NCBI GenBank assembly: GCA_000442015.1
Contig: KE560703.1
Coordinates: 1 to 37,510 of the forward strand
Length of the DNA stretch: 37,510 nucleotides
Direction: 5' to 3'
Source of the DNA: Rozella allomycis CSF55
Lineage: Eukaryota
The position numbers and the translations under genes are program-made. The notes under the pieces were generated by a model. It made no database searches. It was given only the letters and a program-made list of their open reading frames with translations, and was not told the DNA's origin. Below, one piece after another: positions 1,062-30,353 of this stretch. Numbering within the stretch: position 1 is the first letter of the stretch; each line of letters begins with the position of its first letter.

Positions 1062-3340
1062 ATGGAGTTTGCCAAGGCGTTTGTCGAGTGTCATTACAGC
1101 AAAGAGTAAAATAGCGATAAATGTTGAATAGGCTAAAGGACAGTTCTCTTGAGAGTTTGGTTGGTGGGATCCCTGTGCGATACACTAATTTGGAGGCAGC
1201 CAAGATAAAGGACTGGCTAGTTTATGCTATAAAATTGAGTGAGACTAAAGAATTCAAAGATTTCCACGGTATGTTGGTTGATCTTGATAGACATTTGAAG
1301 TTTTATTCGTTTGTCGCGTTGGAAGAGATTAGTCTTCCGGATATTATTATTTTCGGGGTTATTAAGGGATGCGGAAAAAAGTTTGATCGTGGCCAGTTTG
1401 ACAATATTAGCCGCTGGTATGACTGGATGGCTGAATGTAAAGCTACCAAGGATGCTGCTGAGCTTTTGAAGAAGAGTTCGAATGGCAAGGCAAAGGACCA
1501 AGGAAAATTTGATATTGACTTGGCTGGCGCAGAGTTTGGAAAGGTGGTGACAAGATTCCCGCCTGAGCCATCAGGATACTTGCACATCGGACATGCCAAG
1601 GCTGCATTGTTGAATGAGTATTTTGCACATAGATATGGAGGTGAGTTGATTGTGAGATTTGACGATACGAATCCATCAAAGGAAAAGTGTGAATTTGAGG
1701 AATCTATTTTGGAAGATTTGACACTGTTGGGAGTGAAACATGATAGATTTTCGCATACATCTGACTATTTCGAGGATATGATTAAATTTGCTGAACAGTT
1801 GATTAAGCAAGGAGACGCGTATGTTGATGATACAGTTCAAGAGAAAATGAGAGAAGAGAGAATGAATGGAGTTGCTAGCAAGTGTAGAGACTTGAGTGTT
1901 GAAGAGAATTTGAGAGTATTTGAGGAAATGAAAAAGGCTAGTGAAGAAGGAATGAAGTATTGTTTGAGAGCCAAGATGAGTGTTGATGCGAAGAATAAAG
2001 CGTTGAGAGATCCAGTTATTTATAGAATCAATTTGCAGCCCCATCATAGAACAGGAAGTAAATGGAAAGTGTATCCTACTTATGACTTTGCATGTCCAAT
2101 AGTTGATAGTGTGGAAGGAGTGACGCATGCATTGAGAACAAATGAGTATCATGATAGAAATGATCAATATTATTGGTTTATTGAGAAATTGGGATTGAGA
2201 AAGCCGTTTATTTGGGATTACAGTAGAATAAATTTTGAATTTACTTTGCTTTCCAAGAGAAAGTTGACTTGGTTTGTTAATGAGAAGCACGTTGAGGGAT
2301 GGCATGATCCAAGATTTCCAACTGTTAGAGGAATAAGAAGAAGGGGAATGACTATTGAAGCATTGAAGGAATACATTTTAATGCAAGGTGCTTCAAAGAA
2401 CACATTGTTATTGAAGTGGGATAAGATTTGGGCTATTAATAAACAAAAGATTGATCCAATTGCTCCAAGACACACAGCGATTGAAAATGATTCAGTTGTT
2501 GCTAGAATAAGAGGCAATGTTATGAATTATTCCAAGGAAGTTTTAAAGCACAAGAAGAATCCAGAATTAGGATTCAAAACGACTGAATTTTCCAATGAAA
2601 TTTTAATTGATAAAGTTGATGTTGAAACATTCGAGTTGAATGAAGAAATAACTTTGATGGATTGGGGCAACGCCTTTGTTAGAAATTTGAGTCCATTAGA
2701 ATTAGAATTGCATTTAGAAGGAGATTTCAAAAAGACAAAGAAGAAAGTAACTTGGTTATCAAAATCAAAGAATCTGATTCCCGTTGAATTGAAAGATTTT
2801 GATTTCTTGGTTTCAAAGCCTAAATTGGAAGAAGAAGATTCATTTGAAGATTGTCTTGTTAAAGAAACTGAGTTTACAACGCTTGGACTTGCTGATGCTA
2901 ATGTTAAAGATTTGAAAAAGGGCGATATTATTCAGTTGGAGAGAAGAGGCTTTTTTATTGTTGATAAGCCTTTTGATGGCAATTCAGTTTGTTTTATTTT
3001 GATTCCAGATGGAAAGCCTCAATCTACTATGCCAAGGGGTTATGTTGAACCAAAGAAACCTGAAGTAAAGAAGAAGCAAGAAGGAAAGAAAGACTCTAAG
3101 AAACAAGAAGGAAACAAGGAATCAAAGGAAGCACCAAATAAGAACTCTAACAAGGAATCAAAGGAATCCAATAACAAGAACTCTAACAAGGAATCAAATT
3201 CAAAAAAGGAAGTAAAAAAAGAAGAAGAACAAGTGAAATCTGGAATGTATCAGCTGAGTCCATTCATTAAAGAGAGTGATTATTCATTCAATATGGATGA
3301 ATTGAAGAAAGTAGTTTACGATTTGAAACCTTTACATTAA
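1062..3340 (+). CDS. GUS1: Cytoplasmic glutamyl-tRNA synthetase with N-terminal GST-like domain
   Basis: Motifs TRFPPEPSGYLHIGHAKA (HIGH), RFDDTNP and LLSKRKL (KMSKS-equivalent). A likely true ATG at 1062 plus a 26-nt intron at 1106-1131 joins the ORF-track frame (MEFAKAFVECHYSKE|LKDSS). Confidence 0.95.
3113..3198 (+). repeat. 36-bp coding tandem repeat (about 2.4 copies) in the Lys/Glu/Asn/Ser-rich GluRS C-terminal linker
   Basis: AACAAGGAATCAAAGGAA occurs at 3113 and 3149; AAGAACTCTAACAAGGAATCAAA occurs at 3140 and 3176. Confidence 0.8.
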
Positions 3341-3426: not shown

Positions 3427-6400
3427 CTAAATGTTTGAAGCAAGAAGAGCGACACCATTTTGATAGAATGAATCAAAGCTTCCATCAGCAGGCAAATAAA
3501 CAACACAAATCAGTTCACTTCTGCTATTATCTCTGTACAATGGAACCTTGAGTTTATCGATGCAAGAATTATCATCACAAACCCAATCAACATAACTGTG
3601 AGGAACCAAATTCATTAATTCATTAGCCACTGAAATAGATCCATTTTGATTCACTTTGGCTCCAGAAAGATACAAATCTATTTATTAAACATTAAATATA
3701 TTTACTTGAAATGACTAGCGAATCATTTGATGGAATAAAGCTGAAATTCAAGCATAAATTTTCAAGAGAAACATTTAATTTCTTTGCGTATAATTGCCTT
3801 GAAGCAGTGAGGAACGCTTGAGGGTTGAAAAGACATCCAAAATCAATTTGCATCGTTTCATTCAAATTAGAAAAGTAAATGAATCTAGAGTTTAAATTAT
3901 TCAAGAATTTATCAAGAGAAATATTCTGAATTGGAAACATTTTCCATTCTAGTGGGATTTCAGCTGCATTGAAACAATTCAATAAAAATCTAGTTCTGTT
4001 TGTGTGTTTATCTTTTCTATCTAAAACTAATTTTAAACTATTCAAATCAAAAACAATTAAAGACAAAAGAGAATTACAAGTTTCAATTTGTCTATTAATA
4101 AAAGTTTCAATTGGATTTGAAGATTTGATTGATTTAATTTTGATATTTGAGAATTTGGTTAGATAATCGCTGATAGATTTGTAGATTGAATGGTTAGATT
4201 TAATTTGATCAGAATCTTCTTCTTCTTGCAACAAATTTGATAATTTTTTAACATTTTTAAAGATTGAATCTAGTTGGGATTTTAACATTGCAGTTTCAGC
4301 AAAGGGAGACAGACCAAGCAGAAGTGGATTTGTTGAATCTTTTAATTGATCAATCCAATCAAGATAATTTCTTCTTGGAATTTGAAGATTAAAAGTTAAA
4401 TATGAATCTGGTTGAAACATTTTAGGATTGAATAAATTAGATATAAAGGAATTGATGATTATTGAATCAAATTCATTATCAACTTTACCACCATAAACAA
4501 TTGAAGAGAGAATAGATTTAATTGAATCAAATGGAATTGAATTTGGATCAATGTTTGTTTTATTCTTGGCAATTTTATTAATTGAATTATTTATTAATTT
4601 AATAGCAAAATCATAATCAGAATCATTGAATTCATAATTCTTTGAGAAACCAATTGGAACATACAACAATCTCTCTTCAATAACAGATTGAAACCAAGAT
4701 AATAGAAATATCAATGTGTGTTTTTCAATTGGATTTGTAAAATGTTTTTCTTTGATTGTTGAATACAATGCAGCTTTAATTCCTGGTGGAGATTCAATCA
4801 AAACAATTCTCGAAATTCTAATTAATGAAACTGGAATTTTATTATTTTCAAATTGATTTAAATTGCATGTCATGAAAAGTTTACTTGATTTTGATTTAAA
4901 TGACAATTTTCTTTCCAATGTAGACAACCAATTAGAACAATGATGAATATTCTTCAACAATGTCCAATCTCCAGTAAAAGAAGAATTTAAAATTGATTTT
5001 TCTGCCAATTGAAATCCTTCATTTGATCCCATCGCTATCGTTGAAAGTTTAACGTTATTTTCATTGGCTAAATTTTCTATTCTATTAGATGCATCCATTC
5101 CCTTTGAACAAACTATTAAATAGATTTGATAATCTTCTTTAATACATTCACTTAAAATATCTTGTTTTTTATTATAAATTGAACATTTTAAATATTTTTC
5201 AATAAAATTTGAAATTTCAATCAACGCTTTTTCTGGTTTTGTAAATTTCATTTTTATTAATTCTGAAATTTCCTTTTCTATTTCTGAATTTTCCAAATTG
5301 TCTTTTTCATTCAACAAGAGTTTAATCAGCTCCACTCTTTCCCTTTTTAAATCTATTCCACTTTCAAATAATTCAAATTTGATTCCAGTTAACATTAACG
5401 CAAACAACACTTGATCATTAAAGGTCAAAGACTTGTAACATTTCTCATAAACTAACTGAAATAAATAATCTTTCAAATATTCAATTTTATCACCAGAATA
5501 TTCAACTTTAATAGCTTGAGAATAAATAGATTTAAAGAATTGAATAGAAAATTGATAAAAATGATTCAAACTCTCCATCTTTTCCATTAGAAAATAAATA
5601 CTAGATGCACATTTAGCAATTGGCAAATATTTCATAGTAATTGAATCAACTTGGTTCATAATAAAATCAGATTCATCATATTTTATTGTAATCTCTTTCA
5701 CTTGGTTCTTCAAATCTTCCAAAGAATCAATCAACTTATCATTATCAAGAATACTGCCTTGTGAATCATTCAAAGTCTGCAATAACTTCTTTTCTAAATT
5801 TCTCAAAACTAATTGATATTCCCCTTGCAGTTTCAAAATATCATTTCTCTTCTTTTCCATTTCTGGTTGTTCAGTCATCATTAGTTCATTCAAACATTGA
5901 GATTGCAAACTGGATTTGGTTACAGTGAAATTGGCAAACGTTACTCTGCTAGAAACATCTGGAGTAAACTTAAACGTTGGATCTCTAGTTATTAAATATA
6001 GTTGAAATGTCGGTGAGAAATCAATATCCTGATTACCTAATCTTACATTTAAACTGTTTAATTACCTAATATTAACTACAAACATTATATTTACCTATTC
6101 TAACAAGTACCCTTCCACCCGCTCTCTTATACTCTCTATTCAACAATGGATTAATAATAGGATCAATCATCTCAACATCTTCAACCACCAACGTATTCCC
6201 AAATCTAACACAACTCTCCAATGTCTTGACAAACGATTCATCCATAAAACTAGTAACATTCACATTCTGATTCAAATCACAAATCAGTTTCATCCCCTGG
6301 CCACTCGGATCAATAATCAATGGGTATCTCTTATGTCTCTTCATTATAATAGCATTCTCAATTGACACTTCATCATCAATTAAACTCTCCTTCCACTTCA

Positions 6401-9400
6401 TCCTCTCATCAACCAAACTCAAATACTCGCTAAAACTAAAATAATCTTTAAACACAATTCCAATCATCTTCATCACCCTCTTGCACTCTTTAAATATCTC
6501 TATTCTGTAATGCTGGTCATAATATCCATAATAACTCAACATCACACTAGACAGAAACACATCCCCTGATATAGTTTGCATTTGATTACCAAAATTTCTA
6601 CTCGTCTCTTCCCACCTCATCTTCTCTGATCCCAAATTGTCAATCAATTTCACAGATCTATCAACTCTAACTTGCACATTCTCCATTTCCTCTTTAATCT
6701 TTTGCGTCTCACTAATCAAAATGGCATATTCTTCTTTAATCACAGAAATATTAGACTCTAAATTCAATATTCTCTCTTCCATTTCATTAAACACTTTCCT
6801 AGTTTCATTTGCTTTTGATTCCAATTGCTCAACTTGGTTTCTCAATGGGCCAACTTTTTCTAAAATATCAGCAAAACTAATCTGCGCAATAACCCAACTG
6901 ACAAGGGGCCCACACGCTTTACTCGCTCTATTAACAGTTTCAAAATTAAACTGGGCATTATTCAAATACTCTCTTGATATCTTTTCTTTAATAATACTAG
7001 TTAAATGTTTATCTGTATCGAAATGTACAATAGAATTAATGAAATCATCTCTTCTTAGCACAGTTTGAACACTCTTCCATGAATCAACTTGATGCCCAAG
7101 TAGAATACAAACCGCCTCCATTGTCAATTTGACTGGATCTGGTGGATTTCCCATTGATCTCACTTCAGTCAATTGCTGCTTCTTTATATTGCTCACATTT
7201 TGTTTCGCTTCAATCACTGCAGGCTCAACCAGACTCAATTCTTCCATAACAAGTCTAGTTTGATTTTCAATGATCAATTGCTGTTGTTCCATTTCCTTCT
7301 TTATCACCAAACTCTTGGCTCTCTCTGATTCAGCTTCTTGCTGTTCTTTAACCATTCTCTGCAACTTTTCATTAGCTTCTCTATTCTTAATCTCCAACTG
7401 AATCTTCTTTTCTGCCAACTCTTTTTTCAACTCGGCAACCTTTTCAACAGTTTCAACTAGTTTATCTAATCCAACATTAACATGTCGTTGTTGATCTTCC
7501 AACTCTCCCCTCTTTTCATTGTACAGTTGAATGTAATGGTTCAATGATTCAACAAAATGTCTAGGCGTAATAAACATTTGCCTATTAAACAACTTGCAAT
7601 AATTTTTATTCATCTTTTTTATATAATTATGCACATGAACAAATATCAAAGCAATTTGGTAATACTTTGAATCAAAATTATACTTGATAATCTCCAAATC
7701 TTCAATCAACAAACTATCAACTAGAATTAAACAATAAAGAATTTCTTACAATTCCAAGTCAGAGCTTTATCATTTGAACTATTCAAATCCAATTTATTAA
7801 GAAATTCTAAGGCAACTTGAAACAATGAATTAGAGTTCCAATCACCAAACCAATCCAACACACATCTATTAAACAATGCAGGTGACGTTGAAGCTTTATT
7901 GTTATCTTCGCTTGGATTCATTGTAAACACAACATGCAAATTCAACATTATTTGATACGTAAACCATTTATACAATTCATCATGATTATCCAGCATTTGA
8001 CCTTGCTTTTGTGACGCTTCTTTAATCATTAACATTAATGAAGAGTATTCATCATCTTTAAATAACCCTGGTATCTCTGCATTAGCTAAAAGTGTATTAA
8101 TTCTTTCTAAAAATCCAGAATCTAAAACATTTGATTCATCAATGATAAAACAAATCTTTTCTCCTTTGCATCCACAGCGTTTCAAAATAGTTTTCAAATC
8201 TTCATCAAAATCTTCCATTTTGTATTTATTATGAACTTTCAATTGAACTATATTTAACCCATTCATCCACGCCACAAATTTAGACAATGTTGTTTTACCT
8301 TTTCATGAATAATATAAAGACTTACCACTTCCACTTGTTCCAATTAACAATAAATGACCTTGAATCTGTTTAAATACTCTATCAATTCTCAATACATGTT
8401 CCAAAACATCATCAAACAACACAATTGGAACATCCAACTCTTCTTCATAAAACACTTTCAATCTAGCTTTAACAAATTCTTTCAATTCTCTTCTTTCAAC
8501 TGAAATGTAATTCTTATTCAACCAATTAGAAAACAATATTGGTCTACTCAATGCTTTTTCATAATCAAAATTCTTGAAATTGTTTCTAGCCACTTGATCT
8601 ATTGTTTTATCAATCCATTCTCTTTCTTCTTTTCTGGTTAATCTATCACTAAACAATCTAATTCCTTCATGTGCCCAAATCCCTTTTAATATGTGACTAA
8701 TGTTGTTATTACTTGTGAGCATTTCCAATGTAACAAACTCCAATGGTTTAATACACTCATAAATACCTATCTTTATTCTAATGATTATTAATTACCTAAA
8801 TTGATTTAAACAATTTAAATTACCCCTCATCCATCTAGTTAATTCTCTGGGCGAGTAAATGTAATGATCTTGCACATTATCAGCTCCATTCTCACCTTGA
8901 CCATTCTCAACTACATTAATAGTAAACTTATTCTGATTCAACTCATAAAACTCAATCATAGCATCAGTCAGCGCATCCACATACATTCTCAAATTAGGAA
9001 TCATTTTCAACATGGATCTATTAAACGTGCCATAAATCTGCTTCAAACTAAATCTCTGCGGATACCCAACATACAACAACGGCGTATGTCTCAGAAACCT
9101 AATGGACAATGGCTTTCTACCTGTATCAGTCGGCGGGTTGCATGCACCTACAAATTGTATTCTTTCAATCCTTATAAACTGCTTGTCACTGGATCTCCAG
9201 AACCCACCTTGTTCAATCAGCTGACGCAGAAATGAAATAACTCGCTGCGTTCCATAGTCATCCTTGTTGGGTAGATTTATTTCATCGCAAAAGAGAATAA
9301 TCCATTGCCCTTCAGATGGAGGTGATAGAATTATTCCTTGGCTTGTCTTTCTGTATTCACAGTATTGCTCCAATGTTTTCAATATCATTTTTGGCAATGT

Positions 9401-12400
9401 TGCACTGCTGAAATTTAATGGAATCATTTGTATTTCTGGTAATTTTCTCAAAGCACTAAACAAGCACATTGTTTTTCCACTTCCTTTCATTAAGAGAATA
9501 ACCTTTTTGTACCTATGTTATTCCAAACTAATACAAATTACCTGGTGGACCACATAAAATGATTGGCTTATGCTCACTTAACCAAGAATACAATAAATCT
9601 TCATGCCTAATTGTATCAACAGTTGGAATAATAACATCCGCCTGCGACACCTTTTGTGTATCAACTTCAATTAATGGAACTTTGGTCTTCCAATACACCC
9701 ATTCACCCAATGGCAAACTACAATCAAATTCAATTAAATTATCTTCTGGTATTTCAATAATCGTAATCTTTTTCAAATATTCAAACAATTCATTTCTATT
9801 TTTAGAATCACCAACAAAACTCCACCTAAATTCAAACTGAAGAATTTAAATTTACATTAAAGAGATTAATAACTTTCTTTGAATGTATTTTTCCAATGTT
9901 TCTCTTGGCAAACTCATTTCATTTTGATAATTATAGATTAATACATTTCTAATACTCTTTTGAATTAAACCAAATAAAGTTTCAATCATTCTAATTTTTG
10001 ATATTTCCATAATATGATCCAAACTAGAACTTTTCTCCAACAATTTTGTTATCAATCCATCTTTAATAAAATATGGCGATAATATCTCAACACATTCTCT
10101 CTGCGTCTTTAAAATTGTTTCTTTATTAGTTTCTTCTAAATCATCTAAACATTTATTATTCAATTTATTAAAGAAATATTCATAAATGATATTCAATGGA
10201 ATAATTTCATCTGAATGGAAAATCATTCCACATCTACTAATTGTTGCTGGCGTTGCATAATTCAAATTCTCTACTTCAAATATAATTCTCACATTAAATG
10301 GTAAAGCTAATCGTTCCCCATTCGGTAGAGTCAAAACCTTTTCATTTCAAATTAATTCTAATTACCTTGTTGTCATCCAGAACAGAATTCAAATTCTCAA
10401 CCCATTCAGGATCAACATCACCATCAAACACAATCCAATGTCTTTTATTCATTTCTCCTCTAACATTATTAATAATTCTTCTCAATAGACTTGTAAACAA
10501 TCCATCGTTCCATTCACGTGTAGTTAAATCTAATGTTCCATACAAATCTTCTTTATTAACAGACTTTGGATCAATCACATACGAAACACTTTCAATTCCA
10601 TCAAACTGTTCCATTGATCTCAACAATGTTTTCCAACAAGATGATTTACCAGACCCTGATGGCCCAACAATCATTATTCCATGATGAATCTTTTGTATTT
10701 GATACAACTGAATAATCTTTTGAATCCACAAATCATAAGGTTGATAAAATGATTCTTTTCCAACTTTCTTGACAATATTCAATAATTCATCCATATTGGT
10801 TGATGAATATTTAATATTTGGAAATACATTATCCAGCAATTCTTCAAGCAAAGGTACATCTTGTCCAACAATCTTTGGCATCACTGTTTCAACCAAACTC
10901 TGCAGCAGTATTTTCAATTCTAATTCTTTTAAATTTGCATTTGAATTTATTTCCTTTAATTCTTTGTCACCACTACTACTGTCTCGTTTGATGTTGCCAG
11001 AACACGTTAAACAATTCTTCAATGCTCTCAACCCAAAATCATAATGACTCTGTTTACTCAACTGTTCATCACACAACTGAAACAACAACGTAACTTTTCT
11101 AGCCAACATTTCAGCATATTTGAATCCTTGTGAATACAACATTACTTGCGATATCATTTGATTGTCTGGTCTGGTCATTGCAACACTCTTGAACAGTTTC
11201 TTTAAATTATCTGGCAATTCAGATCTACCCAAGTAGCCTGGATTCATTGTAATAAATATTCCTGTATTTCCATTCACAATTATTCTCTTATTCAGCAATT
11301 CAATTTCCAAACCATTTGAATAATTTAAGGGTTTCAAATTATTTCTCATTGAACTATCACTTTCCCTTTCTAATCTACCTTCCGTTTCTCCATCTCCTTC
11401 TTGTTCACTTCTGATACCTTTAAGACAATTCTGAATAACTTCCACTTGCTGACTAACAGCCGACAAAATTTCAGGCTTCAATCTATTAAACTCATCAAAA
11501 CACCCAAATCCACCCACTTTGCATAATCCAATAAAGATTCTCCCCATTGCTTGAAAATCAAAATTCTCATCACAACAAAACACAAGCACAAATCTGCCCA
11601 GATGGTGGCCAAGTGATTTAACACTCTCAGTCTTGCCAGTTCCAGCTGGACCAAATGGCGACGCACCCAGCCCAGCATCTAATGCTAGTGCCAAAGTTTG
11701 GAAACATTTATTGGTGAGTGGTGTTTTGACTAGTCTGTCACAGACACCGAGGTATTCCCATCCATAATAGAATTTAGAATTTATCATTTCAATTGATAGT
11801 GATTTTAATGGATTTGATTCATTTAAAGTGAAATAATATCTTAACTGACTTGACCATTCAAAGGAATCTAAAATGATAAGACCATTGGAGTCTGTTAATA
11901 AGCTTTTACAAATATCTCTTTGATAGACACATTCTATAATTAAATTTTCAACCTTCTTTCTCAACAATGTGGAAATGTCAGTTAATACAATTTCAGATAA
12001 TTTATTCAACAAGTCATTAATAAAGGAAACAATATTATTCAATGGCATTTTAGATTCAACATTTCTAGTAAATGCTATTTGAAGAGTGAGAATGATCAAC
12101 TGATCTGGAGTATCATTTATCCACTCCATGAAAGAATTTAGAAAAGAAGAATCTATTTGAAACGAAGAAATAAATTACTTTCACTTTTATTCTCCTTCAA
12201 ACTACCCCTTTCACTTATAATACCCATTTCACCTACTACTTTCTTGTTGAACTCAAGTAGTGAATCGTGTAGTTTATAAACTAGAGTTGAATTGACTTGC
12301 ACTTCCAATTCACTCAACCACTCTGTAACCTTTCTATTATAACCAATTGGCGATTTCAACTGAATGACTTCCCCTTGCTTTGATTGAATACCATGAATAG

Positions 12401-15400
12401 CATTCTCATTAAACAATAGCGAATCAATGCCAGAAAACATCTTTTTGAAATGCTTTTGAATCTGATTAATATTCTTGTTATTCCCAACAATATCTAATAA
12501 ATCCAAATCACCAAGAAAATAAAAGCGAGGGAAATTTAATCTCTCTCGCTCTAAATAGTCACCCAGAGACTTTTGAATTCTGTTCAACATTTCTAGTAAT
12601 TTTTCCATTGATTTTTGAATGTGTGGAATATTTAAAACATTTAGAATTAAACTATTTTTAGAAACTTTTTTCATGATTGAAAAGAAATCAGTGTGGATGG
12701 ATTGAAATCTAGCAGACTCAACTGGCAATAAATGTTGAATGTCTGAATTGTCACTAAAAATACCTTCTAAATAGACCCATTGACGTTGAACATCAATCCA
12801 CACATCAAATAGTAATTGAATTTTAGTTAGTTTAGATTCCCAAATGATGCAATCTTGTTCAAATGGTTTAAAGAATGGAGAATTCTTCATTGATTTTAAA
12901 CCATTTAAATGTTCATTACATTTATTAAACAATTCATCCCAACCTTTTATGGTTTAAACATGTATTGTTACCTTTGATTAATTTACATTTATTTTGATAG
13001 TTTATTAAATCTAAATAATAATTTTCCCAAAATTCATTAATTTGTTTTAAATATTCTTCAATTGCTAATTCACCTTGCGATATTCTTAAAATTTCTTTTA
13101 AATCATTTTCATTTTTGTTTAAATTCCAAATAAATTTTAAATTCAAATCTGAAAATAAAATATTTGAAATATTTAAATTATTAAATAGAATTTTCCAATG
13201 TCTTTCTTTCATTGAAGGACCTTTTAAATCTATTAGAATTGAATTCATTTTAATAAATTCTTTAATCTTGTTGAATAGAAAATCAAAAGATTCGTATTGT
13301 TTAATTTTAAAAGGAATTTCTTTTAATTGATTTAAAATTGTTTCTAATTGATTTTTAACTCTTCTTGGAACAAAAACACTCCACAAAGTTTCACCAATTT
13401 CTTCAATTTGATTCCAATATAAACTTAAATTATCCCAAACTAATTTCACATCATTAAATTCTTCAATCAAATTATTTATTTTATCATTTTTATTTATTGT
13501 CAATTCCAATGCTTCTTTAGCTTTTAAAATTGATTCATTCTCTTCTTTAATCAAATTTAGTTTATTTTCAAATTCATTTAAATTGTTCAAAATATTTTTA
13601 AAATGAATTTTATCTCCTTTATCAACTTTAATTAAATTCCATTCTTTAATCAATTCATTCAAATTATTTTCATTTCCATTTTCTTTAACTAAAATTTGAT
13701 TCTTTAATTCATTCATTTTTTCTTTAATTATTTTATTTTTTCTTTCATAAATTTCATTTAAACAATCAAACTCTCCTTTAATCTGTTCAAAATAGATCCA
13801 TTCACTTGGAAAATTAAATTTATTATTTTCTAAAATTCTTAAACTAGATTTGAAATTTTCTAATCTATTTTCATACTCATTTTTATTCTTTTTAAACTTT
13901 TGAATCAATGAAATTAAATTTATTGCAAATTTTGATTCAATGGAATATTGTTCAATCTCTATTCTCAAATTAAATATTGTCTTGTAAAACTCTTTAATCT
14001 CTCTTCCAACTTGACTTCCAAACTCTTTAATCAATTCTCTTTCAATCTCCAAATATTTATTTTTAACCTTCTTTTCAATCTGTCCAAATTCTAATATAAA
14101 ATTTCCAATTATCTTTCTATTAAAATTTGTTTCAATCATTTTCCTATTCTTTTTAATCTCAATAAATATATTCTGCCATTTCTCCAAATCTACTCCCAAA
14201 TCTTTCTTTATTATCTCTTCAATATTAATCTCCCACAATGTCTCATAATTCTTAAACTCTTTCACAAATTTATTAATCTTTATCATTCTCTCCTGAATAA
14301 CAAAAATAGCCCTGGAAAACTCTTTAATTGATTTCTTTAACAATTCTTCAAATGTTTCTTCTGTATTCTCTACCTGGAATTCTCTAACTTTAATCTTTTT
14401 CAATTTACACACAACATCTATCATTAAACTATTAATAACTTTTTACTTGTAATTTCATACAGATTCTCAAACATCACTTTTCTAGCCATTTCAATTGGTG
14501 GTTGAATAATCAATTTATCATTCTTAAAAACTACCTTATGTCTAGACACAGCAGTTGCAATATGTGTATTAAAAGTATTAGAAACATGAGTGTCGACATT
14601 TCCATCTACTTCGCTGTCTAATAATTCATTTATTCCATTTATTTTCCCTGCTGCTTCTTCAACTAGCTCAAATCTCTTTATCCATCCAGAAATACCAACA
14701 TTCAACCTCTCCTTCAACAACTCACAAATTCTCTCATTCAATTTACACACATAAAACGGAACATTAGAAAATCCCTCCAAATTCATCTTATCAATCACAC
14801 CCTGGATCTCTCTCAATATTCTCTCAAACGTTTCCCTACAATACTCTACATTCTTCATCATCAAACTCTTCTCTTCAATCTCTTTAATCATCCCAATAGC
14901 AACCATCGTCTTTTCATTAAAATTATTAACAACATTATTCAAATCCCTAACAAACATCACATACCTATTTTCAACAACATTCATCGCTAAATATGCATTA
15001 ATGAAATTCTCCCACGTTATATTTATCCCCCTCTTCATCAGCTGCTGGAATTCACCCAAATAACAATCAACCAAATTTAAAACATCTTCATTCTCTCTAA
15101 TCATCGCCATCGTCTCATTATAACTATTCATCGTCTCCATCAATGACATCGCATGCGGATATATCCTCTTCCCATCCTTGGCTAAATTCATCACAGAATG
15201 CGGAATGGGCAAATTCATACTCTTCATATTCCTAACTTCTTTAAACAACGTAACCAATTGATACTCAAAAGATACATTCACTCTCAACAAATTCCCTACA
15301 CTCTTCTCAACCTTAAACACTCTCCCTTGTATGATCAATTCCTTTTTATTAATCTCTGCCAACCACGATTCAAATATCTTTTAAATCTAAATAAACTCCT

Positions 15401-17269
15401 TACTGGTTTAACATCCAATTTACGCATAAAATTTTGAATCTCATTAGACAACTTTGAGCCTTCTGTATACATTTCCCATCCTTTTCCCAACACATCTTCA
15501 ACTTTCTTCACTACAATCTCCAACTGTCGCTCAATTTGCTTGGCCCACATTATCGCACCAGAATAACTAGGAATGTCCCTAATCAAACTCAATTGTGCTG
15601 TATCTGAATTATGATACTCCATTGTAAACTTTTGCTGCAGCTGTTTAATATCCGCTTTTACATTCTCAATCAACTGGTTCTGATACTCTTGCACAGCACT
15701 TCTAATCTTTGGTCTCACAAATAGACTATTAAAATTAGCAAACGCTCTAAACATTTCAGTTGCATTCTTGGATCCAGATAATCTTTGTCGCAAAATAACT
15801 ATAATTTGATTCTCAATCTTTGATATTTGCTCATTGTAATTCATTTCTGCTAAATTCCACTGCTCAGCTCCTTCAACACTCAAATCCAACACATCAACAT
15901 TTTTCACACTCTCATAAGCCCTTTCAACATCTTCAACTGCCATCAACTCACTCTCAGACACCTTGGAAATCGTCAAATACAATTCTTCATGTTGTTTCCT
16001 AAAATTACTAATAAACACAATCTTTTCTTGAATTTTCAAATGCTTGTTAGTCATCTTCATTGTTAAAAACTTGTCTCCCCTCTTTCTGCCAATTTCTCTC
16101 GCCATTATTGAAAATTCTTGGAACTGATTCTCCCAAACTTCAAACACCTCCAAACAACTCTTCATCAACTGCTCAAACTCTTCATATCTCAAATACATCA
16201 ATCTCTTCTTCTTCAAGACTTTCATTATTTGTTCACTCAAATCACTGGAAATCGCTTCAACAAGCCCCAACGCTCTCTTCACTGGATATGGACTCAATTT
16301 CAACTTTTTAATTAAATGTCCAAATATCCCAAACAACGCCTCCTTGATCTTTTCCAAATCTTGAGCTGCCAGCAAATCAGACAACGGGAACTCTTTCATC
16401 AACTGATTATACTTCACAACCATCTCACTTGTCTCTTTCAACCCTGTATCCGCTAAAAATCCAACAGTCGCATGAAACCTCTTTGCATGCTTCAACACTT
16501 CCATAGTCAACACTATTCACAAATCAAAATTATTCTTACCAACATCATCATTCTTCAACTCTTGCTCAATTTGATTCAATGCCCTTTCCATATTCATCCA
16601 GAAATTAATCTCCTGACTAGCCGATCCAGACCCAACATCTCTATTCAATTTAGTCACCTTTTGAATCTCCTTTATCCACCCATTGACCTGTCCCTGCAAT
16701 CTAATCAAGAACGCAGAATCATTCAAAAGCTCTTCAGGCACATCATCAACACTCGCCCTCCTATTCTCATTCCTCGCTCTCTCCACAGCCTTCTTAATCT
16801 CCACATCAACACCCAACAACACTCTCGGGATATCCATATTCTCATGCAAATGCAACAACGCAATCTCCAACTCGGCCATCTTCTTCTTCGTCTGCGGCAC
16901 AATCCCGCTGCTCACCCCTCCCTCGCTCTCCTGCACAAACAAATCAAACATCGGAGACGCAAACCGATGGATACACGAAAATAAAACCTCAATCGCAGAG
17001 CCAGCCGGAACATACATGATCAACACCTGCGAATTTATCTCGGAACTCTCGTCAATACTCTGCTGCTTCTTGTACAACACACACCCCTCACACGCTTGCA
17101 CCGTGTTGTCCATAAACACCTCGCCGTCCCTGCTCCCAATAAAAAGAACAGGCGAATCTTGAATAAATAATTGGAGCTTCTCAGACTTTACACTTGATAA
17201 TAGAATATCTTGCTCACAGTTTAAAAGTGGTGGGACCACCCTCAAAATGTACTGCCGTAATTGTTCCAT
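3427..17269 (-). CDS. DYNC1H1: Cytoplasmic dynein 1 heavy chain, about 4463 aa, 13 intron positions
   Basis: P-loops GPAGTGKT (AAA1), GPSGSGKS (AAA2), GPPGSGKT (AAA3) and GTSGSGKT (AAA4); stalk/microtubule-binding domain ([13 protein letters not shown]); N-terminal tail. Ten single introns (26-30 nt, 278 nt total) and three double introns (173 nt total) leave 13392 nt, exactly 4464 codons. Confidence 0.96.
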
Positions 17270-17575
17270 GACCAGGGTAGCCGGATGGAGGGAGATTTGG
17301 ATATACTAATGCTAAATTGTATTAAACATAAAGACATAAATGAACTCTTCTAAAGTTCCCTAACGTCAATCAAATTTATTCGTTTTCAATTGGCTTTGCA
17401 AACCTACCCGATGAAGATATATAAGGGAAGAGATGGCGATTGATAAAATACTAATTCCGAAAGATCTATTTGTGTTGTGACACCACCGTAACAGCAATTA
17501 GAATATGTTTTTAATTGTTTAAAGGAAATGATGCTTTAATTAAACTAGCATTAACAACTAAACGAACTTTAATAA

Positions 17576-18568
17576 TTGGCTTGTGGTGTTTGCATTTTTT
17601 TGATAAATAGTCTTCACTTGATTTTTCAGGAATCTAAAAATTTCACTAAATTCTATTTTTATTTATATCGGTGTGCTTGTACCAAGCCACATATAATGAG
17701 AAAGAATCAAGTTTTCGAATTATTCAAACCTACAAAACGAAGTGAAATCTTTGGGTATTATACAAACTGCATTTTTTATTTCCTAAAACTTATCCCTTTA
17801 TTCAAGGATCCCATTGAATTTTTGATTCTGTTTTTATTGTTCGATGATACTGCAGCGTTTTATTTAGCCTTGTTAACAACAGGTCGCTTTGTTTTGTACA
17901 TGTTAGACTTGAAACACGGCAAAAAAGCATATAGTAACGGTGATCTAGTTGGACTTTATTCTAACACTTTTGGTTGGATGACATTTTTGGTATCCAGCAA
18001 GAATCATTATTGTTTTGCAAACGCTATACTAAAAGAGAAAACAATATATGAATCACTATTACTAAGAGTGTGGCAAGCCAAAAGAAGTAATGCACGTTTG
18101 TAAATGTTTTTAGAATATCTTGAGCTACTTTTCTTTGTAGCGCCATATTATTTATTGTTATTTCAAGTGAAACCTTTAGAATTTCATGGGTTGACTGGAG
18201 CGTTAAATATCTTGTCCATGATAGGTTTGGTTATAACATATTTTACAACATCCTTTTTCATGATGTTGTATCCATTTTTGACAATCCTTTCATGCAAAAC
18301 AATAGGAAATCAATGTAAAGATCGGTTACACCGAAAGTAGATTATATTTTTACTTTTTATCAGGATGACAAACATTTTGCAAGACGCAATGATGCGTGAT
18401 ACAGTTCAGAATAGATGTATGTCATATCATGAAGCAATTGGTGGAAATACAATGCACAGTGTTCAGTTAAATAACCAAGCGAATTTTTCTTCGACTTATT
18501 ATGCAAACGCGCATTCTACAATTAATTTATCGCCTGAAAGTATCGAGGGAATCAACAGGGCATCATAA
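17576..18568 (+). CDS. Hypothetical multi-pass membrane protein; start and C-terminus uncertain
   Basis: Three consecutive ORFs join in frame via two 27-nt GT-AG introns (gtaatgcacg...tttttag; gtagattata...ttatcag). Several hydrophobic stretches; no family recognised. Confidence 0.5.
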
Positions 18569-18878
18569 CTGACGACGCTCCTCCTCCTTACACCATAATT
18601 TGAATCAAAGAAGGCATTTTCAGCATTTTATTGATATTAAGTTAGTAACATATGTAATAAACTGATTTTTGACATGTTATGTCGTATTCCCTTTTGCATT
18701 AAATAATACATATGTGACTGCTGAGTAGTTCAAGACAAGTTAAACATATTGGGACATTGACAAAAGGCGACATCCGATACTGATATTCAAAAAACTTAGG
18801 GTTACAATTTTTTTGAATATGTTATCGCTGTGGAAAATTCCGCGCAAACCCTTGTCCTTGACTACTGAATTTTCACGA

Positions 18879-20403
18879 ATGCTGTCCTTTAGATTTCTAC
18901 CATCTAAGATCTTCCCACGGTCAATCCAAAATCAAAGGCGATTTTTGTCGATCCATGAGTATTTGTCAATGGGATTGCTATCAAAGTATAAAGTTCCGGT
19001 CCCTAAAGGCGATGTTGCAAGAACCCCTCAAGAAGCCTACCAAATTGCACAAAAATTAAGTAATTAACTAAATTATATGACAATCTAATAGATACTGAAG
19101 ACATGGTTATTAAAGCACAAGTCCTAGCCGGCGGGAGAGGTAAAGGAACATTCACCAATGGATTGCGTGGAGGAGTGAGAACAATTTTTTCGTAAGATTT
19201 AAAATGTCTATATCATAGTCCTACCGAAGCGAAAATGTTCGCAGAACAAATGATTGGTCAAAAATTGGTCACAAAGCAAACCGGGGCGGCTGGTCGGGTT
19301 TGCAATTCGGTAAAAAGTTGAATACATATAATTTACAGGTATTCATCTGTGAAAGATTATTTGTGAGAAAAGAATACTATTTCGCCATTTTATTGGATAG
19401 AAAAACAAGGGTAATGCAAATTTATCATCACGAAAGGGACCCGTAGTGGTAGCCAGCTCCCAAGGAGGCATGGACATTGAACAAGTTGCAGCTGAAAATC
19501 CTTCAGCTATTTTATCAGTTCCGATTGATATTAATAGAGGTAATAATTCTATTTGGACTATATCCAGGGTTGACAGCTGACGTTGCCCGTGATATTGCAA
19601 TTAAGGTTGGATTTAGCAAAAAATGTGTCGACCAAGTATTTCGTTTTAATATTTTATGAAAGGCCACTAACGTCATGATGAATCTCTACAAGCTTTTTCT
19701 TGAAAAAGACGCTACCTTGGTCGAGATCAATCCTTTGGCAGAATCTGCGGATTCAAAAGTTGTTTGCATGGATGCGAAATTAAACTTTGATGACAACGCT
19801 GACTTTAGACAAGAGGATGTAATGAAGCTACGTGATCCAAGTCAAGAAGATGCAAGAGAAGTGAAAGCAGCTGACTTTAAATTGAACTACATTGGCTTGG
19901 ATGGAAACATAGGCTGCTTAGGTAATATATGTTGATCAGATAGAAAAGTTAATGGCGCTGGGTTAGCGATGGCAACCATGGATATCATCAAACTTCATGG
20001 AGGTGAACCGGCCAACTTTCTTGATGTTGGAGGTGGTGCGACAGCCCAACAAGTAACTGAAGCCTTTAAAATCATTTCATCTGATCCAAGAGTATAACGA
20101 TGAACTATATCTAAGTAGGTGTCTTGCATTCTTGTAAATATTTTCGGAGGAATAATGCGGTGTGACATTATCGCCGAGGGGATTATTTCCGCTGTGAATC
20201 AATTAAATCTAAGCATTCCTCTTGTTGTGCGCTTGCAAGGAACAAGAGTAGATGAAGCTAAAGCTTTAATTTCCAAAAGCGGATTGAAAATTGTATCGGT
20301 TGATGATCTTGACATCGCAGCAACAAAAGCTGTCCAAATGTCGCAAATTGTTCAATTAGCTAGAAAGGCAAATATGCAAGTGAAATTTGAATTACCGATT
20401 TAA
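18879..20403 (+). CDS. LSC2: Mitochondrial succinyl-CoA ligase beta subunit (8 introns, 26-32 nt)
   Basis: Transit-like N-terminus followed by [48 protein letters not shown] and [10 protein letters not shown]. Confidence 0.95.
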
Positions 20404-20488
20404 AAATACCTAATAAATCCCCTTCCCTATACATTTCATATTTTTCTAGAATCTTCATTTAGGAAATTTTGGAACACCCTGGTAGCAA

Positions 20489-22187
20489 ATGTCTAGTGCA
20501 GCTGTTAAACTCATTAACCCAGGAGCTGATGTTGCAAGAAGCAGCCAAACACTTCAAATTAATACGACCGCAGCCGGTGGATTACAAGAAGTTGTGAAAA
20601 CAAATCTTGGGCCTAAGGGGACACTGAAAATGTACCTAATGATTTAATAATTAAGAATAGGCTTGTTGGTGGAGCAGGAGATATCAAATGTACTAAAGAT
20701 GGAAAGGTATTATTGAATGAAATGGTAAAATTGTAAAGTCAAAAAGATAGCAAATCCAACACCCTACTGCAGCATTGATTGCCAGAGCTGCTACAGCGCA
20801 GGATGATATTACTGGGGATGGAACTACCACCATTGTATTAATGATTGGCGAATTGTTGAAAATGGCCAACAGATATTTAGCTGATGGACTGCATCCACGA
20901 GTCATTACTGAAGGGTTTGAAATTGCCAAGAATGAGGCATTAAAGCTTTTGGAAGAATTTAAGTTGAAAATAAACATTGATAGAGAAGTTTTGGTAAATG
21001 TTGCACGCGCCTCATTGCGTACAAAAGTTCATCGTGATTTGGCTGATGCGTTGACAGAGGCTGTTGTGGATGCTGTTTTGGCAATCAAGAAGGATGGAGA
21101 ACCAATTGATTTGCACATGGTTGAGATTATGAAAATGCAAAGGAATGCAGATACTGATACACGTTTAGTGAAAGGATTAGTAATGGATCATGGTGCTAGA
21201 CATCCCGATATGCCAAAGAGAGTTGAAAACGCATATATTTTAACATTGAACGTTTCTTTAGAATATGAAAAAACTGAAGTTAATTCTGGCTTCTTTTATA
21301 GTTCAGCAGAACAAAGGGAGAAACTTGTTGAATCTGAAAGAAAATTCATTGATGATAGAGTTAGAAAACTAGTAGAATTTAAAAAGCAAGTTTGTGATGG
21401 AACTGATAAATCCTTTGTTATTATTAATCAAAAGGGGATTGATCCTTTGTCTTTAGATATTCTTGCAAAGCATGGAATTTTAGCTCTTCGTCGTGCAAAA
21501 AGAAGAAATATGGAAAGATTACAATTAGCTTGTGGTGGAGTTGCTCAAAATTCAGTTGATGAACTCTCTCCTGAAGTCCTTGGATATGCTGGCCTTGTGT
21601 ATGAACAAGTTTTGGGCGATGATAAATTTACGTTTATTGAAAATGTTAAAAATCCATTATCAGTTTCAATTTTGATTAAAGGGCCAAATTCTCACACTTT
21701 AACTCAAATTAACGACGCTGTTAGAGATGGATTGAGAGCTGTTAAAAATGCTATTGAAGATAACTCTGTGGTACCTGGAGCTGGTGCTTTCAATGTTGCA
21801 GCTTATAACCATTTAATGAAATTCAAAGATAGCGTCAAAGGGCGTGCAAAGTTTGGTGTCGATGCTTACGCCCAAGCTCTTTTGGTAATTCCAAAAACTC
21901 TCGCTGCCAATGCTGGTTTAGACGTTCAAGATGCTATTGTCGCTGTCCAAGAAGCTGCCTCTAATGGTCATGTTGCTGGCTTGGATCTTTCCACTGGAGA
22001 AGCCATGGATCCAGCTGTTGAAGGTATTTGGGACAACTATCGTGTTCATCGCCATATTTTACATTCAAGGTAACATTTCTTATAATTAATTTCTAGTACT
22101 GTTATAGCAAGCAATCTTTTGTTGGTTGATGAAATGATGAGAGCAGGAAGATCTTCCTTGAAAACGTCAAGTATTCCAAATAATTAA
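20489..22187 (+). CDS. CCT6: Chaperonin CCT/TRiC subunit zeta (3 introns)
   Basis: [51 protein letters not shown] and C-terminal [10 protein letters not shown]. Confidence 0.96.
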
Positions 22188-23013
22188 TAAAAGAATTTCC
22201 TCTTTAAATATTTTACTTTATTTCTATTGCCGTATTGCTGTTCATTCCTCCATAAAACAGTGGTGTAACCAGTACAGTTAAGACTTAAGATCCTCCCCAT
22301 AAAACAGTGAAAGAGTATTACAACAAAACATTAAATAGAAGATTTTAATACTAGAAGAGATTTTGCTTCTTCTCTGAGGCTGGCAAAGGATACGGCGTAT
22401 GTGCACAAAATTATTCACACTGACTTTGTGAATAATCTTGACGGCATTCATGAGTACTTTTAGTCGAAAATCCAGCTGTTGTTTTGCAGAGGAAACATCT
22501 AGTTTCAACACATGAAGAAAATTATCATCATGCGAAGACCTAATCTCAGCAACTTCAATCTTGCAGGCGATTCAACTAGAAAACGACACCGCACTACCCG
22601 CAAATCCAATTCCAGCTCAAGTAAGGAAGGAAATTCAGGTTTCACTTCCCTTATTAGCCCTACGCCAGAACAAATTAGCATTTGCCGCTGGGATCTGTTT
22701 ATACAGAAGGTTACTAGGTTTTTCATCTGGAAGAGGTTTGCCAGATATTCTACTTCTGTCAGGGATTTTATCAGAGAGGACTTTGTATAGCCTCCTTTTT
22801 CTAAGAGATTGTTCTGTAAGAAATCCCGCCTACATGTCAAGCCGGTCCAATAGCCCTCCATGAAAACATTAATGTCTTAAATAATTCAAGTAAATTACTT
22901 GACCTCAGTTATAAGTTCCATCGGACATCGATGTAGGCTGCTGGAACGACAAGGTGAATCTAAATAATTAATAAAAGAATTGTGTCATTAAATCTTTTAT
23001 TTTAATATTAGGC

Positions 23014-25117: not shown

Positions 25118-25300
25118 AGGTCTGTTTGTTCCCCAAAAGTTAAAATCATATAAAACCATTACTCCATTTATGAATTAATAAACAAATAAACAAAAAACAA
25201 GTTTATATAGTGTAATATAAAGACCTTATCATTATTTATATTGTGTAATTGAGTGTCTTTTATTATTGGATGAAAATGCTCCGCCACACGTTGAATTTCA

Positions 25301-28567: not shown

Positions 28568-29162
28568 ATGAATTTATCGCATCGGACACCTTTTTCGTTA
28601 GATAGAAGAACATTTTTCCGGTGTATTAGTTACATTAAAACGTAATTGATTATTTTGCCTAAAACAGAGAATTATCGAGTTCAAAGTATAACCTGCTTTC
28701 AAACCGCACGTTAGAAAACTTAAACGACCAGATGGAAGAAATTATAGATGCGAATGACAGAAATTGTGATATAGAGTATACAAATGGTGTTTTAACAATG
28801 AAACTGCGAGAAAACATGATTTTTGTACTTAATAAGCAACCTCCCAATCGCCAAATTTGGCTGTCGTCGCCAATATCGTAAATTTATCCTCTAATTGAAA
28901 TAGTGGACCAAGAAGATTTGATTTTTGTGAGTCGAACAATACTTGGTTTTACACTCGCGACAATTCGACATTGCATGAACTTTTATCAAAAGAGCTGTCT
29001 GAAATACTAGGAAAACAAATAAATATCAAGCCAATTTATTTTTGCTTGCTTTTCTTCCGAAACAGAAATGCTGATCCTCATATTCGGCTGCCCAATATAA
29101 ATTTCATCAACGTTCCATCCCTTTTGAACAAGCGAAGAACCAATGCTCTTTTCTGTATTTAA
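28568..29162 (+). CDS. FXN: Frataxin (2 introns) with C-terminal extension
   Basis: [41 protein letters not shown] and LHELLSKEL. Confidence 0.92.
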
Positions 29163-30353
29163 GACATTCGCTTTCTTGTGTGCGTTATTTATATCCATTC
29201 CTTTTATTATTAAAAAAGCATGATAAAACCCTTTCAAGAGATCATCCCTTGATGCACGGCGGTTGTACCAAAGAAAGCACTTATTGTTTTCCTTATTGTG
29301 AAAAATATAATATTTTTCTTTGTTGACGAAGTCCTTTTGGGACCAACAATCCTGTAACTGCTGAGTCTCATCATACGCTATTTTGCGCAATGGATAGTCA
29401 ACAAAAAGTTCCATTCGGCTAGACCAAAACCCAGATAAAAAATTTTCTTCCTGTGCTATCTGTTTCGGAGTAGGAAATTCGTCGTTGTTATGTATAAAAT
29501 TGAAAACAAGGTACATCCGCTGGTAATTCAATGATGGCGTTACAACGTTCTTACACGTTCTGAATACACTGTATGAAGATAAAGAGCTGAATATAATATA
29601 CGATGCAACTATGTAACTTAAATTCGTCCCGACTAGTGACGCAAGTAAAACACCCAAGGACGTTCCTATTTTCGATTTAAATGCACTTTACCAATAAGAG
29701 ATGCAGCTGTGCTTTGGGAGCCCGACTTTCCAGTGATATCCCCTAAATTGTTCTTCAAAGACATGCTGCTATGAATTTGTGCTCTAGTAGCTGATGTTGC
29801 AAGCCAGGAAATGTTTTTAGCTACATGATTTGTAATATGCCAAAATACCAACATTTGATAAGGAAGCGACGAAAAGAAAGCAAGATGGGGCTAAGGGTAG
29901 CAATACTTCAGCTAAACCAGCAAATTGCATTAAGATGGATGCCCATAATCTATGTAGTTTTGGGTTTGAATCAAACCGATTATTCATTAAACTGGCATAC
30001 ACAACACCTCCTAGCTGTCCTAAACCATCTTTAATTATCCAATTTAAAGCTGCCGCTAAGGGTATGTTTCCCTGAGATAGTCCTACAGAAAAGAGCAGCG
30101 CCTGTGTTGACAAGACTAGGTCTCAAATTTAGAGAAAAATATTACCACCAGAAACTGTACCAAATGTTATTGATAGGGCATTATAAAAAGAGTACTTGGC
30201 GTAATTATCAGTTACGGAGTGGGGATAGTCAGTTGGTAAGAATAATTTGAACATATGTCTCCAGTTGGTTAATTTGAGCGCATTTTTGTTAACTCTCATG
30301 TGTTTTTGATGTGCAATTAAGGTAGAAAATGCTCGAATACTACATGAATTCAT
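29007..30353 (-). CDS. RUS1/DUF647 (root UVB sensitive) family protein (3 introns)
   Basis: FLPTDYPHSVTDNY, VLSTQALL, AAALNWIIKDGLGQLG, NLGDITGKSGSQ, SLNYQR and terminal LVQKGW. Confidence 0.88.

Follow-up and report, generated by a model that had tools for sequence, protein, structure and literature searches.

Three interruptions of a cytoplasmic dynein 1 heavy-chain gene of an early-diverging fungus are real pairs of abutting mini-introns, the two units of each pair separated by a zero-length exon. We put at roughly seven in ten the probability that each interruption of 57-58 nt represents two independent, complete spliceosomal mini-introns that would be removed in two reactions; use of the inner splice sites and stepwise removal are inferred from the anatomy of the units and from the gap in intron lengths around them. 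Together, the three doubles suggest a splicing machinery that handles one tiny size of intron, with longer inserts removed piecewise. Positions given below are those of the window, meaning the whole 37.5-kb stretch of DNA that was analysed.

Anatomy of the double introns and their host gene

All three interruptions split at a central TAG|GTA into two GT..AG units (Table 1), the centres reading TAG|GTAA in doubles A and B and TAG|GTAC in double C. The 5' ends of the six units are GTAA in five cases and GTAC in one; the 3' ends are TAG in five and AAG in one. Each double is in phase 1 and lies in a glycine codon (G|GT, G|GT and G|GA). Unit C1 follows the first base of the glycine codon in GPPG|SGKT, a Walker A loop, and when the whole 57-58 nt are taken out, GPPG-SGKT, RWMRG-IYE and the motif at site A (18 protein letters, not shown) are restored.

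Windows of 61 residues were compared with dynein homologues at each junction. Site C was spanned by 28 of 30 matches, site B by 35 of 35, and site A by 119 of 120, none of them gapped, and thus no coding base lies between the units. The first-pass annotation of this DNA had described the interruptions as 58, 57 and 58 nt long, divided at a midpoint TAG|GTA into units of 29+29, 28+29 and 29+29 nt, all in phase 1 within glycine codons and with no coding base between units; direct reading of the sequence bore out the first parts of this description, and the 28, 35 and 119 ungapped alignments bore out the last.

Table 1. Coordinates of the dynein gene, the double introns and their units
Feature	Position	Strand	Length (nt)	Description
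Cytoplasmic dynein 1 heavy-chain gene	about 3427..17269	minus		Pfam matches and homologues; hosts the three doubles
Double A	6094..6037 (6094..6066 + 6065..6037)	minus	58 (29+29)	
Unit A1	6066..6094	minus	29	GTAA..TAG mini-intron, 5' half of double A (12 protein letters, not shown)
Unit A2	6037..6065	minus	29	GTAA..TAG mini-intron, 3' half of double A
Double B	8823..8767 (8823..8796 + 8795..8767)	minus	57 (28+29)	
Unit B1	8796..8823	minus	28	GTAA..TAG mini-intron, 5' half of double B (RWMRG|IYE)
Unit B2	8767..8795	minus	29	GTAA..TAG mini-intron, 3' half of double B
Double C	9541..9484 (9541..9513 + 9512..9484)	minus	58 (29+29)	
Unit C1	9513..9541	minus	29	GTAA..TAG mini-intron, 5' half of double C
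Unit C2	9484..9512	minus	29	GTAC..AAG mini-intron, 3' half of double C

The exons of the host gene matched the Pfam families AAA_8, MT, AAA_9, AAA_lid_11, Dynein_heavy and Dynein_C, all above cut-offs except AAA_8, which was partial at an exon edge. The AAA+ motor domains, microtubule-binding stalk and C-terminal domain expected of a cytoplasmic dynein heavy chain are all present, and the best named homologues, 48-56% identical in the stalk exon, are cytoplasmic dynein heavy chains of fungi. The ends of the gene were taken from the gene model alone and not from homologues. The gene uses the standard genetic code and has 13 intron sites that are required by the reading frame, 10 of them in phase 1. 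The window's proteins point to a fungus. A ciliate code was rejected, long frames being open under the standard code, as was a Blastocystis-type organism, for which a poly(A)/stop motif gave 3 matches against 4.1 expected.

Intron sizes and the quality of the units

A two-strand gene model of the 37.5-kb window predicted 73 introns, of which 67 are needed for an open frame: 64 singles of 26-32 nt (mode 29) and the three doubles of 57-58 nt, with none of 33-56 nt among them. Six stop-free introns with lengths that are multiples of three were left out because the frame does not require them. The first-pass count of about 75 other introns of 26-32 nt was thus roughly right, and its premise of a narrow size range holds within the window. 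Its proposal of a step of about 29 nt in intron length stands for this 37.5-kb window only, and all three doubles are in one gene, the dynein gene having 3 among its 16 predicted introns and the rest of the window 0 among 57 (Fisher p=0.009). The length limit comes from this one window and from our own gene model, the first intron profile of which included the six units, a mild circularity. The 3' ends of the introns are A/T-rich and have no pyrimidine tract, and no clear branch-point motif was seen in the introns.

Every longer intron predicted at first (42, 63, 70, 55 nt, and others) became a 26-29-nt intron plus exon once the model was limited to introns of up to 36 nt or the protein sequence was consulted. 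At 19310..19372, the supposed 63-nt intron (29+34, with AG|GT) consists of a 29-nt intron and, after it, coding sequence of a succinyl-CoA ligase beta gene, as judged from the protein read against a consensus and from the model capped at 36 nt. The 70-nt candidate at 24396..24465 was replaced by a 29-nt intron, a 79-nt exon and another 29-nt intron, the 42-nt candidate at 22070 by one of 27 nt, and the 55- and 34-nt candidates at 25484/25505 by one of 27 nt.

The central AG|GT of the doubles is not due to chance. Under a first-order Markov model of intron interiors, the probability of an AG|GT with both halves of 26-32 nt is about 0.005 for an insert of 58 nt and 0.004 for one of 57 nt, giving a joint chance at the three sites (as the product) of about 1.1e-7; AGGT occurs anywhere inside only 1 of 56 single introns. 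All six units, at 28-29 nt, have the features of the ordinary mini-introns: a GTA 5' site, a (T/A)AG 3' site, a length of 26-32 nt and an A+T-rich interior. Scored against the 56 singles, they fall at the 80th (C1), 61st (C2), 75th (B1), 93rd (B2), 86th (A1) and 77th (A2) percentiles, and they outscore all 401 exonic GT..AG decoys of 26-32 nt from the dynein gene. A scan by pattern only for abutting GTA..AG units found 11 pairs, spread over 6 places, where shuffled sequence gave 2.75 (sd 1.9); besides the doubles, the places are 19310 (false), 9151 (a G+C-rich chance match in a dynein exon) and 36786 (a candidate).

Two splicing reactions or one

If introns here are recognised as units of ~26-32 nt, by a GTA(A) 5' site and a (T/A)AG 3' site at near-fixed spacing, that spacing would join the outer 5' site to the central AG and the central GT to the last AG, and the insert would be removed by two separate splicing reactions. 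Since the inner 3' and 5' sites touch, both reactions would probably not be assembled simultaneously and would instead be sequential. Either order would work. With unit 1 out first, the exon G would meet the GTA of unit 2 to form an ordinary 5' site (the sequences so joined, AG|GTAA, GG|GTAA and AG|GTAC, resemble the ordinary donors of this genome); with unit 2 out first, unit 1 would keep its own TAG adjoining the exon. The final mRNA would have the glycine codon intact.

The alternative that survives best, although we consider it unlikely, is removal in one step as a single 57-58-nt intron via the outer GT and AG, with the inner TAG|GTA an unused relic of tandem copying or of a second insertion at the same AG|GT. 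The mRNA product would be the same, so DNA alone does not decide against it, and related fungi have dynein introns of about 49-56 nt, so that a fungal spliceosome can in principle cope with such a length. In this window, however, no further intron of more than 32 nt is needed, and ordinary site choice (the nearest branch region and the first AG after it) would take the inner AG. The likeness of paired units bears on the relic as well. Global alignment within pairs gave 20, 18.5 and 11 matches of about 29. Against 990 background pairs, A1/A2 rank in the top 0.5% and B1/B2 in the top 1.3%, a likeness above that of most intron pairs and compatible with copying not long ago, but this may be mere A+T richness, because the A and B units also resemble units of the other doubles (scores 17-19). 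C1/C2 are no more alike than random pairs (a score of 11, reached by 91% of background pairs), and their inner sites are nonetheless intact. A hairpin that would shorten the intron by looping out its middle was unsupported: no stable one was found in the three doubles, with fold z-scores of +0.54, -1.28 and -0.70.

Five DNA runs from two samples have contigs with the window's version of the region, at word shares of 0.93-1.00 (Logan; sampled words, 5500..10500); some of these runs may be the window's own source. A 414-nt contig from another DNA run, X7, aligns over its full length with 9269..9711 (443 nt); it differs there in 18 letters, shows 29 gap letters and is about 4% divergent from the window. 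The only non-coding sequence within 9269..9711 is double C, the units of which are 29 nt, and hence the variant haplotype most simply has one unit; by frame arguments, the gap is most simply exactly one unit of double C. Because the contig differs at 18 other positions, it is a different allele, that of another haplotype or strain, and its 29-nt shortfall across site C suggests that whole units are gained or lost. The first-pass annotation had regarded reads with only one unit as the sign of an assembly artefact; the X7 contig, shorter by 29 nt, answers to that sign on its face, but it has its 18 other differences, and the window's version is present in contigs of five runs. A protein search for near-identical frames from variant contigs, with an open frame between doubles C and B, found none (best 62-70% identity). 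An RNA run (X9) gave just 60-105-nt pieces at <90% likeness, from other organisms.

A regulatory role for the doubles is quite improbable. On that account, an mRNA that keeps 28 or 29 nt because one unit was not used would be frameshifted, contain a stop and be degraded, and the choice would tune the output of dynein. Either retained unit would indeed shift the frame, since neither 28 nor 29 is a multiple of three, and would bring in-frame stops, and the concentration of doubles in one gene also fits; any single intron here would do equally well, however, the variant seems to carry just one unit at site C, and neither a conserved extra motif nor a structure turned up. Mis-assembly, or an erroneous tandem duplication of introns in the assembly, can be put aside as very improbable: the shorter X7 contig speaks for it on its face, but that contig carries its other differences, independent Logan contigs hold the window's version, the pattern is repeated at three sites, and the units of a pair differ in sequence and are not copies, which argues against a duplication artefact.

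Known systems, origin and annotation

Ratchet points divide up introns many kilobases long and are preceded by a strong pyrimidine tract. In long introns of Drosophila and vertebrates, these zero-nucleotide exons are described as a 3' site set against a 5' site, the 5' site being regenerated and the intron removed piecewise (10.1101/006163, Duff et al.; PMC5126111). The doubles are alike in having AG|GT with no exon base between the sites, as established from sequence and homologues, and in a 5' site that, by sequence, would re-form at the exon end after the first step. They differ in that the insert is 57-58 nt, the pieces are full-size normal introns, and either order of removal is possible; neither a very long intron nor a pyrimidine tract before the ratchet site was found. 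On this comparison we would class the doubles as a miniature variant of recursive splicing. Zero-length exons have been reported in Schizosaccharomyces pombe from spliceosome profiling, in two instances that include a 336-nt intron of SPNCRNA.445, and which their authors call the first recursive splicing in yeast (Chen et al., 10.1101/226894). As outlined there, the host is again a fungus and an internal 3' splice site lies immediately against a 5' splice site, but that case is in a snoRNA host transcript, whereas the doubles lie in conserved protein-coding motifs, three in one gene, in a window where other introns are 26-32 nt.

Stwintrons share with the doubles, as proposed here, two U2-type introns and consecutive reactions at one interruption of a fungal gene. 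In a stwintron, however, the inner of two introns splits the donor, acceptor or branch element of the outer one, whereas both units of a double are complete and merely abut. The earlier view that the doubles are not stwintrons is upheld, each unit having its own GT..AG and the outer sites being intact without prior removal. Uniformly tiny introns are reported from Paramecium and Nyctotherus (~25 nt), Stentor (15-16 nt), and myxobolid myxozoans and Dicyema (22-27 nt) (PMC13644364; PMC5014332). These lineages, as far as those accounts describe them, resemble the window in very narrow lengths and reduced signals, with a GTA 5' site and little beyond AG at the 3' end, but they belong to other kingdoms and the window is fungal. 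The accounts, supplements aside, hold no mention of abutting introns, and we found no published account of abutting mini-introns, again aside from the supplements of papers.

No intron was found at the three double positions in 59-80 related fungal dynein loci. The 80 dynein loci from a metagenome scan have identities of 61-66%, and thus none of them is a close relative. Site C has two units in the window, apparently one in the contig of ~4% divergence, and apparently two again in a much more divergent copy that matches only 9538..9644. With lower confidence, we infer that the doubles arose by lineage-specific gain of a second unit at the AG|GT of an existing intron boundary, or by tandem copying of a unit, and that whole units are still gained or lost between haplotypes. 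If the variant fares well with one unit only, the double serves no necessary function; the presence of three doubles in one gene could reflect an accident of local history rather than a general rule, and the inner sites could be young relics with their decay still ahead. The absence of introns at these sites in related fungi, together with one apparently polymorphic unit, offers a rare handle on intron gain and loss beside existing introns.

A broader reading is possible but tentative: the spliceosome of this fungal lineage may have a hard upper limit of ~32 nt and a lower limit too, so that intragenic non-coding DNA would come only as whole modules of ~29 nt, longer inserts would exist only as chains of complete introns joined by zero-length exons, and modules would be added or deleted singly between haplotypes. 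If that limit is true, intron gain or loss at a pre-existing AG|GT boundary could be caught in the act. Removal in two reactions, if true, would provide a natural experiment on whether spliceosomes of tiny introns measure length from both sides, and zero-length exons would be working at a scale of 29 nt, not of kilobases. For annotation, gene finders that bar abutting introns will misread such sites. The gene path with minimum introns placed a 22-nt intron at site C and added 12 spurious residues to the Walker A loop, and the gene model with intron length capped at 36 nt broke the dynein gene at site B.

Structure of the double introns

Three interruptions of the dynein heavy chain gene, denoted doubles A, B and C (see table), each consist of two abutting units (A1/A2, B1/B2 and C1/C2, with 1 the 5' half), and TAG|GTA forms the center of all three. 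Five of the six units start with GTAA and one with GTAC; five end in TAG and one in AAG. Splicing out the doubles restores the motifs GPPGSGKT, RWMRGIYE and [12 protein letters not shown]. A spliced protein was built by script, and windows of 61 residues were aligned to fetched homologues. Matches spanned the junction in 28 of 30 cases at site C, 35 of 35 at site B and 119 of 120 at site A, none of them gapped. By these alignments, the number of coding bases between the units of a double is zero. The first-pass annotation had described inserts of 58, 57 and 58 nt with a central TAG|GTA and units of 29+29, 28+29 and 29+29 nt, all phase 1 (between the first and second bases of a Gly codon) and with room for no residue between units; our minus-strand reading and the ungapped alignments agree with it.

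The two units within a pair are non-identical and are not copies. Sampled words of 5500..10500 were present at fractions of 0.93-1.00 in Logan contigs from five DNA runs and two samples; the window itself may derive from some of these runs. On this sequence evidence, the doubles are a real feature and not an artefact. A 22-nt, frame-keeping GT..AG also lies within unit C1 (9513..9534, minus strand). A naive gene finder using it bypasses the double, and the Walker A loop gains 12 residues ([20 protein letters not shown]); this short intron is likely an annotation error in automatic models of the dynein gene.

Coordinates of the double introns and of the genes assigned in the window
Feature	Position	Strand	Remarks
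Site A	6094..6037	-	58 nt; units 29+29 nt
Site B	8823..8767	-	57 nt; units 28+29 nt
Site C	9541..9484	-	58 nt; units 29+29 nt
Glutamyl-tRNA synthetase	1121..3340	+	no intron required
Dynein heavy chain	3427..17269	-	hosts doubles A, B, C
Succinyl-CoA ligase beta	18969..20403	+	
TCP-1/CCT chaperonin subunit	20489..22187	+	
Long coiled-coil protein	23014..25159	-	
VHS-like gene start	25301	+	
RUS/UVB-sensitive-like fragment	29007..29687	-	
ABC transporter	about 31548..33434	+	
PH-ArfGAP protein	34063..36301	+	

Intron length and the proposed removal of the doubles

Introns were predicted on both strands with a gene model that combined codon log-odds and an intron profile with states for start and stop. 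When intron length was left uncapped, the model predicted scattered long introns, each of which, when inspected, was a 26-29-nt intron plus exon. The final model limited singles (ordinary lone introns) to 36 nt or less and permitted abutting pairs; 73 introns then accounted for the whole window. The reading frame requires 67 of them: 64 singles of 26-32 nt (10, 15, 14, 19, 2, 3 and 1 at successive lengths) and the three pairs. The other six were set aside as stop-free, a multiple of three in length and dispensable to the frame. No frame-required intron of 33-56 nt was found in the window with this model, and the earlier count of about 75 other introns of 26-32 nt is roughly borne out by the 64 singles.

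Given intron-interior composition, an AG|GT that leaves both halves at 26-32 nt is expected with P of about 0.004-0.005 per 57-58-nt insert, and the joint chance at all three sites is about 1e-7. AGGT occurred anywhere in only 1 of 56 single introns. Scored against a profile from singles only, the six units fell at the 61st-93rd percentile of singles, and all six outscored every one of 401 length-matched exonic GT..AG decoys from the dynein gene; the first intron profile took in the six units, and the set of singles is thus not wholly independent of them.

Splice signals in the window introns are minimal (5' GTA(A), 3' (A)(T/A)AG); a pyrimidine tract is absent from them and no clear branch motif was found. 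Because the signals are minimal and length is very uniform, recognition would have to be by intron definition, with donor and AG a near-constant distance apart. Such spacing would join the outer donor to the inner AG and the inner donor to the outer AG, in two splicing reactions per double. The reactions would probably be sequential, since the inner sites touch, and either order would leave a normal substrate for the second. We therefore favor removal of each double as two mini-introns in two reactions, with a probability of roughly 0.7. The main rival, splicing of the whole insert in one step between its outer sites while the inner ones persist as relics, appears unlikely. Folding predicted no hairpin at the doubles that would shorten the insert.

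Zero-length exons acting as ratchet points have been described in animals, within introns of great length (10.1101/006163), and two cases are known from S. pombe (10.1101/226894). The doubles share the zero-length exon with the animal ratchet points but are miniature, whereas the animal introns are very long. In the stwintron, as described in PMC12403724, the signal of one intron is split by the other; this feature is absent from the dynein doubles, in keeping with the distinction drawn in the first-pass annotation. Tiny uniform introns are reported from ciliates, myxozoans and dicyemids (PMC13644364). In the literature searched, the supplementary data of which might contain such cases, no description of mini-introns that abut was found. 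Judged by their layout, the doubles are a miniature variant of a known splicing arrangement, and the proposed mechanism is well-motivated.

One near-case and one candidate pair were observed elsewhere in the window. Introns of the ABC-transporter gene at 31853..31883 (31 nt) and 31890..31916 (27 nt), both on the plus strand, are 6 nt apart; the intervening GTCCTG adds Pro-Gly, and one 64-nt intron is the alternative, with the frame kept either way. If the proposed limit on intron length holds, GTCCTG would be a 6-nt micro-exon, the nearest neighbor of the zero-length case. Near the contig end, 36786..36847 (plus strand) is a candidate abutting GTA..AG pair by pattern alone (31+31 nt, center GAG|GTAA); it lies outside all gene models of that strand and may be due to chance.

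Origin and variation of the doubles

Similarity to the partner placed the A units in the top 0.5% and the B units in the top 1.3% of intron pairs; A and B units also resemble units of other doubles, and their likeness may be one of composition only. C1 and C2 are unrelated in sequence. AG ends 17 of 73 upstream exons and GT begins 14 of 73 downstream exons; since intron boundaries are often AG|GT, the edge of an existing intron and a bare exon site present the same target. Microhomology provided by the repeated AGGTA could also allow a single unit to be lost or copied precisely. Doubles make up 3 of 16 predicted introns in dynein versus 0 of 57 elsewhere (Fisher p=0.009). Phase-1 introns are also strongly over-represented in the dynein gene (10 of 13 frame-required sites; 13 of all 16 predicted) relative to the other genes (17 of 57, with 28 in phase 0 and 12 in phase 2).

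Three DNA versions exist around double C: that of the window; one about 4% divergent and 29 nt shorter; and one much more divergent, of which only 107 nt of exon sequence can be aligned. A second haplotype is present as a minor form in sequencing run X4 and is also carried by run X7. A 414-nt X7 contig aligns over its whole length with 9269..9711 (443 nt) and differs at 18 letters, besides 29 gap letters. Double C is the sole non-coding DNA in this interval, and loss of 29 nt from the coding part would shift the frame; most simply, then, the variant has a single unit at site C, the place of the gap being inferred. Other X4 and X7 contigs match the window only at 9538..9644, and past the shared donor their unrelated letters can be read as a GTAA..TAG unit of 29 nt with GTATA after it. 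GTATA cannot encode the Walker A loop and resembles the beginning of a second unit. In that case, the much more divergent copy would retain the two-unit layout with different sequence, its second unit being represented by five letters only.

Variation was also observed away from the doubles. A 479-nt contig of the X7 variant on 5067..5515 (449 nt, in the large last dynein exon) differs at 5 letters, besides 30 gap letters; the extra 30 nt might add ten codons, or might form a 30-nt intron that the window lacks. Two haplotypes occur in the DNA runs across 14779..23089, the minor one at about one third of X4 depth. An 8361-nt X7 contig carries only the minor haplotype (over 7.5 kb, it differs at 146 letters and has 93 gap letters), which at 22289..22354 has 73 other letters in place of a 64-nt stretch.

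A metagenome scan yielded 80 fungal dynein loci at 61-66% identity. One tblastn alignment ran straight through the site in every locus covering it (C, 80 of 80; B, 79 of 79; A, 59 of 59), so the three intron positions are lineage-specific or were lost in all others. A 27-nt single intron at 8325..8299 (minus strand) matches an alignment break in 36 of 74 related loci, which implies introns mostly of 49-56 nt in those fungi. A break common to so many loci indicates that some intron positions are old, with the introns since shortened here; the position at 8325..8299 is probably ancestral, its intron having shrunk to about half in the window.

Host gene and gene content

Gene content was assigned across the window, a complete contig of 37,510 nt, from Pfam matches and reading of the predicted proteins; long frames stay open under the standard code. 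Exons of the gene that hosts the doubles match Pfam AAA_8, MT, AAA_9, AAA_lid_11, Dynein_heavy and Dynein_C, and among named proteins its best relatives are cytoplasmic dynein 1 heavy chains from fungi (48-56% identity, stalk exon). The nearest relatives of the neighboring one-exon glutamyl-tRNA synthetase, at no more than 60% identity, are early-diverging fungi (Mucoromycota, Zoopagomycota and one aphelid); the source is thus a fungus of which the databases searched contain no sequenced close relative. The window has a single N, at 37358.
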